Source: a virus
Lineage: Duplodnaviria > Caudoviricetes
IMG/VR virus record: IMGVR_UViG_3300019374_000291
Span: 31,736-95,735 of that record
Length of the DNA: 64,000 nucleotides
Direction: 5' to 3' (one strand)
Shown here: positions 8,762 through 34,028 of the stretch, one piece after another
Layout: the number at the start of each line of letters is the position of its first letter
How positions within the stretch are numbered: position 1 is the first letter of the stretch
Translations under genes and position numbers: made by a program
Notes under the pieces: generated by a model
Told to the model about the DNA's origin: nothing
Databases searched by the model: none
The model's input: only the letters and a program-made list of their open reading frames with translations

Positions 8762-10942
8762 TTACTTAGTATCAGTCTGTTCACAATTTGCTGCATGGGG
8801 CTTAGAATTCTGCGCCGCCCATGCGATGCCGGAAAGCACGAAATAAGTGCAAGGCAGAGCCACGCCGTTGCCCCACAGCTTGTACTCTGCGGAATCGGTG
8901 TACGGGTCAGCCAGCCATTTTCGGATCTGCTTTTCCGTTTTCGGTTTTCCCTTGGGATTGGTGACCTGCCGCCATGTTTCCCAGACCTCAGACCAGAATG
9001 CAATATCCGCATCGGTCGGTTCGAGAATCGCAAGGTCGGCGCACCACCAGTCCGGGAATCCCTGCAAGCGGGCGCACTCCACCGGAGTCAGGCGGCGGAC
9101 GATATACACCGGCTCGTCATTCGGAAGGTCGTTCACAAGCGGAGGATCCTTCCAGTCGGATGCGACCAGCGTATTAGCCTGTTCATGCGCCGCAACCGTA
9201 TGGTGTGAATTCTTGCTTGTGCAATAATGGTCTGCCGGTGCTGCAACCGTTGCAGGTCCTCTCGCAACTGCCGTGACGGATACATCTTCCGAAACGGCGA
9301 AATGATTGTCGCGGGATATTGTGAAGGACGGTTCCGGCGCAGCGACTGCGTGTCGGTCTGTCGTATTCAGCGTAAAACACACATCCTCGTTGATGCCGTC
9401 ACCCTGCGGACCGTTTTCATCAGCGCGTCCGATCATCGAGCCTTGCAGCGAATATGTCTCCGGAGCCACAACGGCAATGCCACCGTGATTGCTGTCCGGG
9501 TTTGCCTCGCTTGTATCAAGGCATCGGGAGATCTCCGTCGTATAACAATGCCCACGAGCATTTTTCGTGCCGTCCGATGTAAAACGCACATCAAAAGTCT
9601 CCGGCGCAGGTGCTACCACGCAGATGCCGCCCTGATTGGATGTCACAGAATTGCCGCCGCTCTGATCGAGCGTCCTGCTTGTGGTCGCTTCATAGAATCC
9701 GCTGTGCGGATTATCCGACATCATCGCATTGGAATGCTTGCTGCATACACCGAAAGCTTTGACTTCCGGCTGAAAAAGCGTCTGATCGTTGTGTGTTCCG
9801 AGTGTCGCGGACATATCCCTCTGCCAGAGTGCGCCCTTTCCGCCCCCCTCGCAGCCTGACCTGATTTTCAGCGTAACGGGTTCTGCCACAAGCGGTACAT
9901 TGTTGCCGCCCGTGCCGGCTCTGCTGCAAAGCGTCTGACAGGTGTCATCTTCACGGATCTTCACCCGACCGTCTGTCGGATGATTCTCCACGGAGAGTGC
10001 TGCCGGAACGACACCGGCTCTCAGTGTGGGAGATACCTCTTCCTCATAGCCGATGCTCCTGGCTTTTGCACTGTGTTCCGTGGAAAAGCCTGCTGCAAGA
10101 ACGGCGGGATGATTGCCGTGATCCTGTGCGACCAGTGCGAGCGCCTTGTCCTCTGTGATACCGACACCGGAAGTACCCTGACAGTTTACGCAGAGGGTTC
10201 CACCTCCAGTGTCAGACCGCCCGCCTGTCTCTCCAGCGCCTTCTTCAGCACCTCCGGCAGCTCCTTGCCACGCACGGAAGCCCTGCGGAGTATACCCAGA
10301 CACGCCTTCGGACTTAAATAATACTTCTCCGGCACTTCCGCCAGCAAGATCTGCGACAAGGTAGATTCTTGCCCTTCGCTGGGGCACACCCCAGTATTGA
10401 GCGTCGAAAACTCGGTAAGCCACGCTCCATCCGTCTCCCAGATATACGTCTGATTTTGGCCATCGGTGATTTTCAGGCGAAGGCACCTCGATCCCTTCTT
10501 CTTTAATTCCGATAACTGCTTCGAGGACAGCTTTGAAATCGTCTCCTCCGTGGGAGGAGAAGGCGCCGGGAACATTCTCCCAGACGCAGTATCGCGGATA
10601 TCGTCCATTTGTTGCATCCCTCATTTCTTTGATGATACGGATCGCCTGAAAGAACAGGTTTGACCGGTCACCGTCATGGATTCCGGCACGTTTGCCGGCG
10701 ATCGACAGATCCTGACACGGACTGCCGAAGGTAATGATATCCACCGGCGGCAGCTCTGCGCCGCTGAGTCTGGATACATCACCGTAATGCTTCACGCCCG
10801 GAAGCCGCTTGTGGGTAACAAGCACCGGGAACGGTTCAATTTCACTGCTCCACTTCGGCTCGATCCCTGCGAGGATGCCGCCAAGCGGAAAGCCCCCGGA
10901 GCCGTCAAACAGACTGCCGAGGGTCATTTTTGTATTATCCAT
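8762..10942 (-). CDS. DNA (cytosine-5) methyltransferase with a greatly expanded variable region
   Basis: SLFDGSGG, GSPCQD, WENVPG, GVPQRRARIY, RRLTPVECARLQGFP, YKLWGNGV; start set by AGGAGG RBS. Confidence 0.92.
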   Translation of the reverse strand: MDNTKMTLGSLFDGSGGFPLGGILAGIEPKWSSEIEPFPVLVTHKRLPGVKHYGDVSRLSGAELPPVDIITFGSPCQDLSIAGKRAGIHDGDRSNLFFQAIRIIKEMRDATNGRYPRYCVWENVPGAFSSHGGDDFKAVLEAVIGIKEEGIEVPSPENHRWPKSDVYLGDGWSVAYRVFDAQYWGVPQRRARIYLVADLAGGSAGEVLFKSEGVSGYTPQGFRAWQGAAGGAEEGAGETGGRSDTGGGTLCVNCQGTSGVGITEDKALALVAQDHGNHPAVLAAGFSTEHSAKARSIGYEEEVSPTLRAGVVPAALSVENHPTDGRVKIREDDTCQTLCSRAGTGGNNVPLVAEPVTLKIRSGCEGGGKGALWQRDMSATLGTHNDQTLFQPEVKAFGVCSKHSNAMMSDNPHSGFYEATTSRTLDQSGGNSVTSNQGGICVVAPAPETFDVRFTSDGTKNARGHCYTTEISRCLDTSEANPDSNHGGIAVVAPETYSLQGSMIGRADENGPQGDGINEDVCFTLNTTDRHAVAAPEPSFTISRDNHFAVSEDVSVTAVARGPATVAAPADHYCTSKNSHHTVAAHEQANTLVASDWKDPPLVNDLPNDEPVYIVRRLTPVECARLQGFPDWWCADLAILEPTDADIAFWSEVWETWRQVTNPKGKPKTEKQIRKWLADPYTDSAEYKLWGNGVALPCTYFVLSGIAWAAQNSKPHAANCEQTDTK
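10186..10617 (-). CDS. ORF nested in an alternative frame of the C5 methyltransferase; putative EcoHK31I-type beta subunit
   Basis: Encodes TLSQILLAEVPEKYYLSPKACLGILRRA, the L.D/Q.L...V..KY.LS segment normally found after motif VIII and missing from the main frame. Confidence 0.6.
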   Translation of the reverse strand: MQQMDDIRDTASGRMFPAPSPPTEETISKLSSKQLSELKKKGSRCLRLKITDGQNQTYIWETDGAWLTEFSTLNTGVCPSEGQESTLSQILLAEVPEKYYLSPKACLGILRRASVRGKELPEVLKKALERQAGGLTLEVEPSA

Positions 10943-11150
10943 CATCCGCCTCCTTTGCGTTCCTGCACAGGGCAAGAAAATCTTCTCGTATTTGTTCCTT
11001 GTAGGCTTCAGCAACCGCAGGGATCTCGTGTGAATACACCGGTCTGCCGATGAAACCGGAGAGATAATTGTACAGATATTTCAAGTCGCTGCCCTTCAGC
11101 ATTGCGAACCCTGTGTATGCTGTCACGATGGCGCATTCATGTTTTGTCAT
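10935..11150 (-). CDS. Hypothetical phage protein (71 aa)
   Basis: Overlaps both neighbours; protein-like sequence. Confidence 0.7.
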   Translation of the reverse strand: MTKHECAIVTAYTGFAMLKGSDLKYLYNYLSGFIGRPVYSHEIPAVAEAYKEQIREDFLALCRNAKEADDG

Positions 11151-11920
11151 CCCGCACCTCCGAGCATATGCTCACAGGCTTTGGCATAGAAATCCCTGCT
11201 GACCTCAAAGCCGTAGCTGTGTCTGCCAAGCTCCCGTGCCGCACGCAGTGTTGAGCCGGAACCGGCGCAAGGGTCGATGACCACATCGCCCTCATCTGTA
11301 AATATCCCGATCAGGCGTTTCAGCAGATTCACCGGCTTCTGGCTCGGATGTATCTTCGGGATATCCTTGCCGTCACGAACCCAGTCAAAATGGTCAAAGA
11401 TCATGTGCCGCTTGCCGTCTGCATCGATGTTGCGGAACTTCGGCAGCTTGCCGCGATACAGCACCAGTGCGTATTCCGTTGCCCCCACGATCCTCATGTT
11501 TGCCTTCAGCACCTGCGGACTGTAATTCTTCATAAAGCACAAAAACTGGTAGTGCTTGAAGCCGTATTTCTCCGCCTGCCGGATGACCTCGGGTATCTGC
11601 TGAAAGGCACAGAACACGATCATGCAGGGAGCGTCCTTTTCACCTTTGGACGGCTCCTTTTTGAGCAGTCGGTTGCAGAATGCGAAATACTCAGCGATGT
11701 TGAACGAGTAGTCGGTGTGGAATGCCGCCTTGTGCGCTTTGCTGCTTTCGCCGTTCTGATTGTCACCGTCCACATACCAGTCGGGGCGGCTGGCGTAAAA
11801 GTCGCCGCCAATGTTATACGGAATATCTGCAATGACCAACTGCGCCCTCGGAATGCTGTAGCCCTTGTAATTCTGAAAGTTATCGTGTATGAGAACGCAT
11901 TTTACATCACTCAACAGCAT
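11147..11920 (-). CDS. DNA N4/N6 methyltransferase (beta class)
   Basis: IADIPYN (DPPY variant), HPSQKP, VIDPCAGSGST; start uncertain. Confidence 0.88.
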   Translation of the reverse strand: MLLSDVKCVLIHDNFQNYKGYSIPRAQLVIADIPYNIGGDFYASRPDWYVDGDNQNGESSKAHKAAFHTDYSFNIAEYFAFCNRLLKKEPSKGEKDAPCMIVFCAFQQIPEVIRQAEKYGFKHYQFLCFMKNYSPQVLKANMRIVGATEYALVLYRGKLPKFRNIDADGKRHMIFDHFDWVRDGKDIPKIHPSQKPVNLLKRLIGIFTDEGDVVIDPCAGSGSTLRAARELGRHSYGFEVSRDFYAKACEHMLGGAG

Positions 11921-13178
11921 CACCGTCCTGCGGCATTGCTGCGACCGCTTCCTCGTATGACAGCTTCTGTCCGTCACGGAGAACATAGGCGACCTCGGCG
12001 GTCTGCTTCTCCCGGCACCATGCGAGGTACCGTTTCACGATGACATCCACGAACTTCGGGTCAAGTTCGATGCCGCGGCAGACACGATCCGTCTCACAGC
12101 AAGCGATCAGCGTGGAGCCGGAGCCGAGGAACGGATCGAGGACGATGCCGTTTGTCATGGTGCTGTTCTTGATCGGGTACGCCATCAGCGGGATGGGCTT
12201 AGTGGTCGGATGGTCGGGGCTGCTTTTCGGCTTGTCATATTCCCAGACAGTCGTCTGCTTGCGGTCTGCATACCACTGGTGCTTGCCCTTCTGCTTCCAG
12301 CCGAACAGGCACGGCTCATGGATCCACTGATAGGGACTTCTGCCGAGGACGAGAGAATTCTTCTTCCAGATACAGCAGCCCGAAAGCTGGAATCCTGCAT
12401 CTTTGAATGCCTTGCGGAAATTGAGCCCCTCGGTGTCGGCGTGCCATACATAGATGCTGCCGTCATCGGCAAGACTGTCATACATACACTTATAGGCAGA
12501 GAGCAGAAAGTTATAAAAATCGCTGTCGCTCATGTTGTCGTTCATGATCTTGCCTGCGGTCTCCTCAACGTCCACATTGTAAGGGGGATCCGTCAGGACG
12601 AGGTTTGCTTTCTGTCCGTCCATCAGCTTTGTGTATGTCTCCGTAACTGTGCTGTCACCGCAGATCACACGATGCCTGCCGAGAATCCAGATATCTCCTG
12701 ATTTGGAGAAGGTCGGTTTCTGAAGCTCCTCCTCCACATCGAAGCTGTCCTCTTTGACCTGCTTATCGTGTACCTGATTGAAAAGCTGCTCGATCTCCGG
12801 CGGATCAAAGCCGGTCTTGCCAAGGTCGAAATCGCTGCTCTGAATATCCTCCAGAAGTTCAGCGAGAAGGTTCTCGTCCCATGCGCCCGTGATCTTGTTG
12901 AGCGCAATGTTCAGCGCCTTCTCACGGACCTTGTCGATGTCCACCACAGCGCACGGCACTTCCGTGTATCCGAGCGACATCGCCACGGTCAGTCGCTGAT
13001 GTCCGCCGATGATCGTCATGTCGGCGTTGACAACAAGCGGGTCGGCAAAGCCGAATTCCTCGATGCTGTTTTTGATCTTCTCGTATTCCTTATCGCCGGG
13101 CTTCAGCTTTTTTCGCGGATTATATTCCGCAGGCTTCAGCTCCGAGACAGGGATCATGCGAAGTTCTGCTGTTTTCAT
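11907..13178 (-). CDS. ParB-N domain fused to a DNA adenine methyltransferase
   Basis: YNPRK...IIGGHQR (ParB-like); LTDPPYN, HPTTKP, LDPFLGSGST. Confidence 0.92.
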   Translation of the reverse strand: MKTAELRMIPVSELKPAEYNPRKKLKPGDKEYEKIKNSIEEFGFADPLVVNADMTIIGGHQRLTVAMSLGYTEVPCAVVDIDKVREKALNIALNKITGAWDENLLAELLEDIQSSDFDLGKTGFDPPEIEQLFNQVHDKQVKEDSFDVEEELQKPTFSKSGDIWILGRHRVICGDSTVTETYTKLMDGQKANLVLTDPPYNVDVEETAGKIMNDNMSDSDFYNFLLSAYKCMYDSLADDGSIYVWHADTEGLNFRKAFKDAGFQLSGCCIWKKNSLVLGRSPYQWIHEPCLFGWKQKGKHQWYADRKQTTVWEYDKPKSSPDHPTTKPIPLMAYPIKNSTMTNGIVLDPFLGSGSTLIACCETDRVCRGIELDPKFVDVIVKRYLAWCREKQTAEVAYVLRDGQKLSYEEAVAAMPQDGDAVE

Positions 13179-13179
13179 C

Positions 13180-13479
13180 TCATTCCTCCCGTATATACAT
13201 CTGCCGCAGCTCTGCGGCTCTTTTTGCGTTCGCATCCTTCAGTACCGTGACCTCACGGAGCGTTTCTTCACTCAGCAGCTTGCCCTTCAGCTTTTCGGCA
13301 AGCGTGCGGTATTTGCGGATACTCCGGCGGAGAGCGGCATCGGTCACAGACACGATATACGCCTTGCCGCAGTAGTCGCAGTTGAAGAAGCTGTATTCGA
13401 TCTCGCCCTCACGCTGCGTTTTCGGCTCCGGCACAAAGGCACAGCCGCAGGCATCGCAGCGGACATTCTGTTTTGTCAT
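13180..13479 (-). CDS. Small zinc-ribbon protein
   Basis: CDACG...CDYCG. Confidence 0.7.
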   Translation of the reverse strand: MTKQNVRCDACGCAFVPEPKTQREGEIEYSFFNCDYCGKAYIVSVTDAALRRSIRKYRTLAEKLKGKLLSEETLREVTVLKDANAKRAAELRQMYIREE

Positions 13480-31574: not shown

Positions 31575-34028
31575 TCATTCTTCCTCTATTCCGTACCTTC
31601 TTCTTAGCTGGCTCTGTGTCTGTGAATCGAAGTCGAGCATATCCAGTTCAAACTGTCTGCCGTCATTCAGTTTTTTGAAGCCCTGCTCCGTAAGGATATC
31701 GTTGCCGCGCTCGATCGTCATATTTCTGTCGCTCAGCAGATGCAGATAGATCGGGTCTGCACCGTAATAGCTGAGATGCAGTCCTGCCAGCTCGATCAGG
31801 CGAAGGCTGACGCCGATATCCAGTTTCAGGCTGATACAGATACCGACAACATGACGCTTCAGCATGATCTCCCTTTTCAGCCATTTCTGAAACGCCTGCC
31901 GCGATACGCCCATGTGGGATGCCAGTGTTGTCTGAGAAACACCCAGTTCATCGAGCACCATCTGAAGTGCGTCATGGAACGTGCCGTGAAGTGCGCCTGC
32001 CAGTGCGCCCCAACGTGCCGCACTTTCAGAAAATGCGTTGTTTTCAGCCTGATAGCCTTCCTCTCCGGGTTCACTGACAAGCTCCACTGTATTATATTTT
32101 CCGTTGCCGTTTTTCTTGGTACGCGCCGCAGAACCGCCTGCGTATTGGAATGTGATCTTCCTGCGTTTCGGTCTGAACGCCAGACAGCATTCATCAATGT
32201 GTGCATGGGCATATTCTGTCAGCCGCTGCATCCCATTGGGTGCGGTTTCAATATAGCGGGAATCGTTGAGAACGTAGTGTCCCTCCAGATAGACATATCT
32301 GCCGCTGAGCAGCACGCTTGCAAATCGCTCTGAGGAGCTGATGAGTGCGATCGCATCCTGCCTGTCGATCGTGTATATCACATTGCTGTACCATACGCCG
32401 CTGGCAGCATGATCCGGCACCCGCTCCTTATTGCCGATGAAGTTCCAGATTCCCTCAACCTCGGTGATTCCGATCTCCTTCATGCGAATCTTCGTCATCT
32501 GCATGGAGGCACCGTATATTTTGGTCAGGATACCGAGCATCCACATGAGTGCGCGGGGTGATCTGTCATTCCCGGTGCGTTCAAACATGCGCTCACACTC
32601 ATTGCAGAAAGTTCCTTCCTCCATCATCACATATGCAGTGAGCTTCTCGTCCTGCTTTTCCATTTCAGCGATCAGTTCCATTCCATCATACTGAACGTCC
32701 TGTTCTTTTCTCAGCCAACTGCTCGTTCTGTCGATGAAATTGTAACTCGGTACGCCCGCCATCAGCTGCAGCATAAAGAACGGCAGATCCACATACACAT
32801 GGACACACTCGTGAATGATGGTTGCCAAAACATCTGAAGGCCGCAGCATCTCATCCAGATTGATGATGATATCTCCGGCCTTGCATTTGAGAAGATCGCC
32901 GCTGCTGTCCGGTATTTCCATATCCGAAAAGATGATGCGGCCCTTTATACCCTCTCCTTTTCCAAGATGCTCCTTGCGCAGACGCAGCTTCATGCGGCTG
33001 TATCGCTTTTTCAGCCATCTGCTCAGTCTCTGCACCAGAACCTCACCGTCAATTTTAGTCGGTGCTTTCAGTGCTTCGGGATAAATATCCTTCAGCATTT
33101 TTGCAGCAAGTGCCGGAAAATCCCTGTATGAAATATTCGGCCTGAGTATCTTGTTGGTCGGCCATGTCTGCTGCCGCGTGATCGCGTCCTCCGGAAAATA
33201 CTGAACGGGTGCCAGTATCGGCCCGCTGCAGGTCTTCTGACCGTTCCTCCCGTAAAGATCGAAGGTGTATCGAAAACGATAATCGATTGTCCTGTGAGAA
33301 TCCCGATACACATACAGCGTTTGTTCACCGCCGCCCTGCGCCATCGGTACTTTCAGCGTAAAATCACCGCTGACGATCACATCCACGATGAAGTTGTCCA
33401 GTCTCTGTTCCCACGAGCTTTCCACACGCTTCACGCAGCAGCCATCGTAGCTGACAAGAACGGCATCTGTGATATCGAGTGCGTTTACAATATCCGAAGG
33501 ACAGGTGTCTGTCAGGTACCGGAGCGCTTCTCCGAAGTCCTCATGCAGGTTATTCTGCAGCACATCCAAGACTGTATGGACTCTGCGGGTGCTGTCTGCT
33601 TCAATATTGATATCCGGTGTAGATGTTGGCATCATCACAAGTGAACGTCTGCCGTTCATCTCCACTACGGTCGAGGTATATCCCTCACTGTAACCGAGAT
33701 TCAGCCCTCTGCTGGGCGGTGTGTAAAGCCCTGCAATGCCGAAACCGCTCATGCCGCTATGGAGCGCATAAAAGCATTCAAGCTCTTCGCGTTCTTGCGG
33801 TGTACAGGTACGGCGGTAATAATCAAATTCCTCCCTTGTGACGTACATTCCGATCGCCATTCTGATGCGGATGTTTTCTCTGTTCATGCGCGGCTTTTGC
33901 TTCGAGCTGCGTTTGCGCTTCTGTTTTGCCTTTTCTTCCTGCTCGATGATATCCAGTATATCCGGATACCGATAGTCATCCGTCCTTCCGTCCAAGTTCT
34001 CGAACCAGTAATAATCACTTGATCTCAT
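31575..34028 (-). CDS. ImmA/IrrE-like metallopeptidase fused to a C-terminal XRE HTH
   Basis: TIIHECVH (HExxH) with a downstream E; VSQTTLASHMGVSRQAFQKW HTH; start chosen by RBS. Confidence 0.75.
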   Translation of the reverse strand: MRSSDYYWFENLDGRTDDYRYPDILDIIEQEEKAKQKRKRSSKQKPRMNRENIRIRMAIGMYVTREEFDYYRRTCTPQEREELECFYALHSGMSGFGIAGLYTPPSRGLNLGYSEGYTSTVVEMNGRRSLVMMPTSTPDINIEADSTRRVHTVLDVLQNNLHEDFGEALRYLTDTCPSDIVNALDITDAVLVSYDGCCVKRVESSWEQRLDNFIVDVIVSGDFTLKVPMAQGGGEQTLYVYRDSHRTIDYRFRYTFDLYGRNGQKTCSGPILAPVQYFPEDAITRQQTWPTNKILRPNISYRDFPALAAKMLKDIYPEALKAPTKIDGEVLVQRLSRWLKKRYSRMKLRLRKEHLGKGEGIKGRIIFSDMEIPDSSGDLLKCKAGDIIINLDEMLRPSDVLATIIHECVHVYVDLPFFMLQLMAGVPSYNFIDRTSSWLRKEQDVQYDGMELIAEMEKQDEKLTAYVMMEEGTFCNECERMFERTGNDRSPRALMWMLGILTKIYGASMQMTKIRMKEIGITEVEGIWNFIGNKERVPDHAASGVWYSNVIYTIDRQDAIALISSSERFASVLLSGRYVYLEGHYVLNDSRYIETAPNGMQRLTEYAHAHIDECCLAFRPKRRKITFQYAGGSAARTKKNGNGKYNTVELVSEPGEEGYQAENNAFSESAARWGALAGALHGTFHDALQMVLDELGVSQTTLASHMGVSRQAFQKWLKREIMLKRHVVGICISLKLDIGVSLRLIELAGLHLSYYGADPIYLHLLSDRNMTIERGNDILTEQGFKKLNDGRQFELDMLDFDSQTQSQLRRRYGIEEE

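Follow-up and report, generated by a model that had tools for sequence, protein, structure and literature searches.

A conserved gene in the +1 frame of phage C5 cytosine methyltransferase genes, probably encoding a small enzyme subunit

The methyltransferase gene and its nested frame

A 64,000 nt stretch of DNA from a virus of the Caudoviricetes (the window; positions 31,736 to 95,735 of IMG/VR record IMGVR_UViG_3300019374_000291, a provirus record of 95.7 kb) carries on its minus strand a gene for a C5 cytosine methyltransferase, inside which a second open reading frame (ORF) is nested. The main ORF is a 750-codon open frame (8762-11014, with TTG at 11014) that scores 124 bits against Pfam PF00145 (cut-off 22) and 114 bits against TIGR00675 (cut-off 100.65). 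The C5 methyltransferase motifs I, IV (PCQ), VI (ENV), VIII (QxRxR), IX, and X were all located in frame 0 (Table 1). It is likely that translation starts at ATG 10945 or 10942, which are preceded by GGAGG (10949-10953), rather than at TTG 11014.

The nested ORF is offset by 397 nt, which is 3n+1 and therefore places it in the same-strand +1 frame of the main ORF. It lies wholly inside 8762-10945, a small polypeptide thus being encoded in another frame of the gene for the large one, and it runs from near motif V, across motifs VI and VIII, into a Gly/Ala/Glu-rich linker. The original prediction, made from the letters of this DNA, was of a gene within a gene: a putative beta subunit encoded in another frame after motif VIII, where the main frame becomes low-complexity. 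The strings quoted in it are all present, QGAAGGAEEGAGETGG in the main frame and STLSQILLAEVPEKYYLSPKACLGILRRASVRGKELPEVLKKALERQ in the +1 frame. The placing of the nested frame after motif VIII is right in part, in that the conserved C-terminal half alone lies behind motif VIII, the ORF itself starting near motif V.

Two ATG codons could open the nested frame. A GAGGG sequence (10618-10622), noticed in the original prediction, adjoins the first of these (10617) and is 9 nt ahead of the second (10608); in the relatives both the second ATG and this Shine-Dalgarno-like sequence are conserved. ATG 10608 is formed by a main-frame Asn or Asp codon ending in T (AAT in 39, GAT in 25, versus GAC in 3), T-ending codons making up about 52 % of Asn and Asp codons gene-wide in these methyltransferase genes. 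GAGG is present 9-10 nt upstream of the nested ATG in at least 55 relatives, and the Arg codon at that place is AGG in 55, AGG being only 12 % of Arg codons overall in these genes; all of these counts come from related, non-independent sequences, in which the neighbouring wobble sites vary freely. The nested frame therefore has translation start signals of its own, an ATG and a GAGG, held by biased synonymous codons of the main frame. Since initiation at the second ATG agrees with the mostly 140 aa length of the database proteins described below, the nested product is probably a protein of 140 aa, from ATG 10608 to TAA 10186-10188.

Table 1. Features of the C5 methyltransferase gene and its nested ORF, in window coordinates
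Feature	Position	Strand	Remarks
C5 methyltransferase coding sequence	8762..10945	minus	frame 0; likely start ATG 10945 or 10942
Motif I	10892-10909	minus	frame 0
Motif IV	10712-10723	minus	frame 0
Motif VI (ENV)	10571-10579	minus	frame 0
Motif VIII (QRRAR)	10367-10381	minus	frame 0
Gly/Ala/Glu-rich low-complexity linker (YTPQGFRAWQGAAGGAEEGAGETGGRSDTGGGT)	10196..10294	minus	frame 0; from catalytic core to variable region
Variable region/target recognition domain, long and repetitive	about 9100-10190	minus	frame 0
Motif IX (RRLTPVECARLQGF)	9056-9097	minus	frame 0
Motif X	8852-8872	minus	frame 0
Nested ORF, 143 codons from first ATG	10186..10617	minus	+1 frame of the C5 methyltransferase gene
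Shine-Dalgarno-like GAGGG	10618..10622	minus	within main-frame ATG AGG (E-M-R)
Conserved nested start codon, ATG	10606..10608	minus	ATG in 64 of 69 distinct relatives
Most conserved nested part, codons 81-130 (STLSQIL..KYYLS..ACLGILRRA..RGKELP..L..ALERQA)	10228..10377	minus	by +1-frame identity
Predicted helical hairpin of the nested protein	10219..10311	minus	AlphaFold2 model; two helices, pLDDT above 90

Selection on the nested frame and its distribution

The two frames were compared in 68 distinct genes of the nested kind (type A, below) and the window gene. Over motifs VI-VIII the main frame is better conserved than the +1 frame. Further along the relation is reversed: mean pairwise identity in nested codons 101-110, 111-120, and 121-130 is 0.85, 0.83, and 0.58 in the +1 frame, against 0.68, 0.45, and 0.30 in the main frame. 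The most variable site changes likewise, being main-frame position 3 in 50 of the 76 codons from 5 to 80 and +1-frame position 3 in 25 of the 30 codons from 101 to 130 (binomial P = 2e-8), with codons 81-100 tight in both frames. This handover of identity and switch of wobble phase are evidence of purifying selection on the +1 frame beyond the constraint exerted by the main frame. It acts over the linker, where frame 0 is poorly conserved and overlaps the conserved portion of the nested gene, so that the low-complexity main frame and the coding other frame of the original prediction do coincide. Conservation of both frames in homologues had been proposed there as a check; when it was carried out, the two frames were found to be conserved in turn along the overlap, as in a genuine second coding frame.

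No stop codon was found in the +1 frame inside the nested ORF in any of the 68 distinct relatives. Outside the nested ORF this frame has 0.033 stops per codon, or approximately 4.5 per 135 codons. When the main frame was shuffled synonymously, the +1 frame acquired a mean of 1.9 stops and the probability of no stop was about 0.14 per sequence, therefore the stop counts are taken as supportive; conservation of the peptide across phyla and the switch in wobble phase are much stronger evidence. As a control for ascertainment, 80 loci were retrieved with catalytic-domain (main-frame) peptides only, at 63-92 % identity. An intact homologous +1 ORF of 133-145 codons was present in all 77 that could be evaluated; interruption by stops in close homologues, named beforehand as a refutation, was not encountered. 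It is very probable, taking these results together, that the nested gene is real and under selection.

Searches with the nested peptide by tblastn gave matches in 137 phage and 530 plasmid records. In every locus where the match was compared with the annotated methyltransferase coding sequence (n=8) it was in the +1 frame, with offsets of 325 nt in Streptococcus phage Javan105, 328 nt in phage NatCom_17901, 457 nt in an Escherichia coli P1-like plasmid, 325 nt in a Corynebacterium plasmid-prophage, 391 nt in mycobacteriophage Dallas, 523 nt in Vibrio phage CP-T1, 535 nt in Pseudomonas phage TC7, and 1600 nt in dmt of phage P1, all eight being 3n+1. A word-indexed protein search returned 1257 called proteins of 78-251 aa; among the matches listed, the best-scoring are from short contigs and in most cases 140 aa long. 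With HMMER, an exhaustive search yielded 3373 cluster representatives at E<=1e-3, 916 of them at E<=1e-10. One of the database proteins, P0155, has no match in IMG/VR.

No family or entry covering the nested peptide was found in sequence and profile searches of Pfam, NCBIfam, and the PDB, and a search of the ESM Atlas gave only unnamed clusters of the same kind. In PHROGs the window's own nested peptide had no match, and the N-terminal domain of a relative had a single weak one (phrog_16143, E 0.003). Routine annotation misses the nested gene. Gene callers by design disallow long overlaps on the same strand. In Mycobacterium phage Schatzie (MK524521.1, 66364-67887) the methylase is annotated as 'coding region not determined; unable to determine intron boundaries'; an HNH endonuclease gene lies inside the methylase region, and the +1 peptide match there covers the C-terminal part only.

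Related architectures and gene neighbourhood

Many of the HMMER matches are proteins of 285-544 aa in which approximately 130 N-terminal residues homologous to the nested peptide are followed by a variable region or target recognition domain (TRD), motif IX, and motif X. The DNA of 250 related loci was retrieved, and architecture classes were drawn up from the first 162. In 100 of these the arrangement is that of the window (type A, nested), with motifs I-VIII, linker, TRD, and motifs IX-X in one ORF and a nested +1 ORF of 132-166 codons; examples are found in Anaerotruncus colihominis DSM 17241 and Flavonifractor plautii ATCC 29863. In 38 (type B, overlapping split) the +1 ORF begins within the alpha gene and continues through the TRD and motifs IX-X, the alpha stop being approximately 40 codons past motif VIII and the overlap of alpha and beta about 375 nt (~125 codons). 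In 19 (type C, non-overlapping split) beta starts at the alpha stop and the N-terminal domain is encoded without overlap, yet it retains the middle and C-terminal motifs (LDL..G..L[LF]G..WE..SPW..LNTG..P..LS.ILE..KYYLS..ACLGILRRA.ERGKELP). The remaining five fit none of these classes. By sequence comparison, the nested peptide is thus homologous to the N-terminal domain of the second (beta) subunit in related split methyltransferases.

Another 77 loci, among L171-L250 (IMG/VR), are circularly permuted, with the order motifs IV-VIII, nested +1 N-terminal domain, TRD, motifs IX-X, motifs I-II. Of these, 58 are nested and 19 are run-on forms; the offset is always +1 and the ORF of the N-terminal domain overlaps motifs VI-VIII. 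In mycobacteriophage Dallas the +1 ORF has 157-159 codons and opens with a DQLDLF motif, as in beta subunits. In some of the non-overlapping split genes (L136, 1085; L139, 3411; L142, 3402; L150, 3417) the beta ATG comes immediately after the alpha stop, without a change of frame, so that read-through or the loss of a single stop would fuse motifs I-VIII, N-terminal domain, TRD, and motifs IX-X.

In the window, motifs VIII and IX are separated in the main frame by a variable, repetitive region of about 400 residues. Between 9100 and 10190 approximately 370 residues consist of repeated TL/GG units (for example GGGKGALWQRDMSATLGTHNDQTLF, NQGGICVVAP, and NHGGIAVVAP), which look like many tandem target-recognition modules. 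The neighbours of the gene are a ParB-fused methyltransferase, another amino-methyltransferase, NrdD/NrdG, and a primase. A 71-codon gene upstream (10935-11150, phrog_13999) would overlap the C5 gene by a few bases if the latter starts at ATG 10945 or 10942. Two more DNA methyltransferase genes lie directly upstream on the minus strand, at 11147-11986 (phrog_67 type) and at 11907-13235 (ParB-fused, phrog_498 type), their open frames overlapping by about 80 nt, and with the C5 enzyme they form a block of three methyltransferases.

Role, origin, and precedents of the nested protein

In the numbering of the 140 aa product, the invariant core comprises W57, L84, L88, Y96, L98, A102, C103, G105, I106, L107, R109, R113, G114, K115, L117, P118, L121, A124, L125, and Q128, most of it within the last 60 residues. 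AlphaFold2 (AF2) modelled the nested peptide alone (alignment of 58 rows) with a mean predicted local distance difference test (pLDDT) score of 64.7, and a 342 aa beta subunit with a mean of 57.2; in both, scores outside the helical hairpin are 50-65. That the hairpin alone is modelled with confidence in the isolated chain agrees with a piece whose folding takes place on a partner. The nested segment GQESTLSQILLAEVPEKYYLSP aligns with residues 305-326 of E. coli Dcm (BLASTP E 0.009), and a profile of 58 N-terminal domains extends the match to residues 305-337, AQRVTLAQLLDPMVEAKYILTP (hhalign E 0.019, a low-probability match to a single sequence). This part of Dcm begins 27 residues past motif VIII (QHRER), ahead of the TRD.

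From the covalent place of the domain at the head of TRD-IX-X in split relatives and the likeness to Dcm, we infer that the nested protein is the proximal element of the variable region, supplied in trans. Ribosomes would initiate internally at ATG 10608, guided by the GAGG in the main-frame Met-Arg codons, and make a protein of approximately 140 aa, which would assemble with a main chain of approximately 728 aa (motifs I-VIII, linker, TRDs, motifs IX-X). The small protein would bring the segment LSQIL..KYYLS and the basic hairpin ACLGILRRA..RGKELP..L..AL, which monomers such as Dcm hold in frame behind motif VIII and in place of which the main chain here would have its Gly/Ala/Glu linker. The beta subunit of the original prediction is supported in kind, and its missing methyltransferase segment by the weak match to Dcm 305-337 and by the N-terminal domain of split second subunits. 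As a whole, a real gene yielding an in-trans partner of the main chain is the best explanation and a likely one, its translation, binding, and need for methylation being the inferred parts; judged from sequence relationships, the protein probably works as a small methyltransferase subunit.

Several points weigh against this explanation. Overall, the AF2 models of the monomers are of poor quality (mean pLDDT 65 and 57) and carry no docking information, and Foldseek gave no match in the PDB at E<=0.001. The match to Dcm covers a short stretch and is weak (E of about 0.01-0.02, in a single comparison). For any one sequence a stop-free frame is only mildly unlikely (P about 0.14), and the relatives are not independent. 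In the N-terminal half of the nested protein (codons 5-80) variation is governed chiefly by the main frame, which weakens the case for a function of that half. Finally, TRD-IX-X is already joined to the catalytic core, therefore no tethering is needed and the small protein could have another role.

The last of these points leads to the alternative that the nested protein is made but does not complete the enzyme, and instead, for example, regulates expression or activity of the methyltransferase or acts against host defences. The recognition and C-terminal motifs being covalently linked to the core, assembly would work without it, a capacity to bind nucleic acid is conceivable for the confidently modelled part, a basic helical hairpin, and Pfam, NCBIfam, and the PDB hold no known family to which it belongs, with phrog_16143 the only PHROGs match for a relative. 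However, in 57 sampled split loci and in many database proteins this domain makes up the N-terminal end of the subunit with TRD-IX-X, covalently joined to it, and is therefore tied to the enzyme, the nested peptide retains the Dcm-like pattern after motif VIII, and in the loci examined it never occurs apart from a methyltransferase gene; such a separate role is improbable. Very unlikely is that the +1 ORF is an untranslated by-product of main-frame constraint or a decaying relic of a former split gene. The 14 % of shuffling trials that stay free of stops and the main-frame-driven variation of codons 5-80 would fit this, as would the N-terminal G-R/K-M pattern, which the WENV motif gives when read in +1 and which the non-overlapping relatives lack, but over codons 101-130 it is the main frame that is a variable linker and the +1 peptide that is nearly invariant, varying at its own wobble positions (25 of 30). 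The peptide is moreover kept from phages of Bacillota to P1, Vibrio, Pseudomonas, and mycobacteriophages, its ATG and Shine-Dalgarno sequence are held by biased synonymous codons, and the ORF is intact throughout the unbiased sample (77 of 77).

The +1 frame might also be entered by programmed ribosomal frameshifting or transcriptional slippage instead of internal initiation, giving chimeras in which motifs I-V are fused to the N-terminal domain or the N-terminal domain is fused back to TRD-IX-X where the nested ORF ends. Chimeric proteins do occur in the databases, with the N-terminal domain following motifs I-IV (P0250, P0217, P0125) or motifs I-VI (P0247, P0242), or joined to TRD-IX-X near nested-type genes (P0142, P0139, P0132), and a rare AGG codon is conserved right before the nested start. 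Nevertheless, only a few such chimeras, each a single representative, stand among billions of predicted proteins, and indels in sequencing or assembly would give rise to them as well; those that lack motif VIII would be inactive. Reading by eye showed no slippery run where the nested ORF begins or ends, internal initiation would need just such an ATG with GAGG at 9-10 nt as is conserved here, and split relatives must start the beta gene independently in any case. Entry by frameshifting or slippage is accordingly highly improbable. P0247, P0242, P0250, P0217, and P0125 are the sole hint of frameshifted products; these chimeric proteins are more likely to be indel artefacts or dead variants than rare true variants.

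A catalytic-domain tree was built by a quick maximum-likelihood method and midpoint-rooted; it has some long branches and the order of events drawn from it is therefore tentative. Type C forms one clade (support 95) within a grade of overlapping type B, and most of type A forms another clade within the same grade, a distant Vibrio member also being type A. P1 and Pseudomonas TC7, absent from the tree, are type A by locus classification. Tentatively, the tree agrees with an overlap of long standing, resolved later in a single lineage, with TRD-IX-X having switched frame via indels in the linker. In the likely course of events, a frameshift past motif VIII would have broken an ancestral monomer up into an alpha and a beta gene that overlap, and a second frame change, in the linker, would have rejoined TRD-IX-X to alpha and left a small nested gene. 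The wider proposal, to which we give somewhat less than even chances, is of an ancient dual-coding module: after the frameshift split, the upstream +1 frame would have been overprinted as the N-terminus of the new subunit, and later single-base changes in the linker would have moved TRD-IX-X between frames, giving nested, overlapping-split, un-overlapped-split, and permuted forms. If this is true, these forms make up a natural series in which a long overlapping gene can be followed from its birth through its maintenance to its resolution, and the enzymes concerned are as well known as P1 Dmt.

In bacteria and their phages, few long genes that overlap on the same strand have solid evidence of selection behind them. 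The nested gene is conserved across phages of at least three bacterial phyla and in thousands of sequence clusters, and the enzymes that host it are of the class used to evade restriction, including dmt of the model phage P1. Taken together, the nested, overlapping, non-overlapping, and permuted forms make a testable model of how overlapping genes originate and are resolved. Should these enzymes depend on the small protein for activity, 'single-gene' clones of them work only because the hidden gene is carried along, codon-optimized or recoded methyltransferases would fail, and predictions of methylomes and anti-restriction that consider nothing beyond the annotated ORF are incomplete.

No description of this nested gene was found in the literature, including a 2025 review of restriction-modification biology. 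An annotated analogue is in Streptococcus pneumoniae phage MM1 (AJ302074.2), in which a 141 aa ORF14 ('putative methyltransferase') is annotated in the +1 frame inside methylase ORF13, and its C-terminus, CSLSDILEEEVDERYFLS, matches the nested LSQIL..KYYLS segment (E 1e-4). MM1 belongs, however, to a distant subfamily, with a methyltransferase of 385 aa and 30 % identity in the core; only approximately 32 residues of ORF14 align, the helical hairpin motif is not shared, and ORF14 is known as an annotation only, no functional study of it having been found in the literature. In E. coli Dcm (NC_000913.3, b1961) residues 305-337, behind motif VIII, align with the nested segment, but there the segment is in frame within a single chain and the similarity is the short, weak one described above.

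As reported in PMC3404938, citing Karreman and de Waard 1990, M.AquI is divided into an alpha subunit with motifs I-VIII and a beta subunit with the variable region and motifs IX-X. By motif layout, as far as that account describes it, the 57 split relatives (types B and C) show the same division, and it is to the N-terminal domain of their beta subunits that the window's nested peptide is homologous. In the window all motifs from I to X are in one ORF, so that its gene does not have the two-polypeptide division; compared with M.AquI as described there, TRD-IX-X is fused to the catalytic core and the beta N-terminal domain alone is separate and fully nested.

In M.EcoHK31I, the textbook example of a beta chain nested in another frame of alpha, the beta polypeptide has motif IX, which is lacking in the alpha polypeptide (motifs I-VIII, X, and TRD), methylation requires both chains, and translation begins at internal starts of the beta frame (PMC2836561, PMC3404938). 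The window gene resembles M.EcoHK31I and M.EaeI in that a small polypeptide is encoded entirely in another frame, on the same strand, of the gene for the large subunit. An equivalence to M.EcoHK31I beta, the precedent named in the original prediction, is not supported, however, as motifs IX and X both lie in the main frame here and neither occurs in the nested peptide; this peptide corresponds instead to the segment proximal to motif VIII, and the overlap covers motifs VI-VIII and not the variable region. The family described here is also large and phage-borne, the comparison with EcoHK31I beta being by its published description. With motif IX in the main chain, the topology is alike and the parts are not, therefore the window gene is not placed in the EcoHK31I family. 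The nested methyltransferase gene, widespread among phages and further mobile elements, is a new variation on the principle of a nested subunit, of which M.EcoHK31I is the known case.

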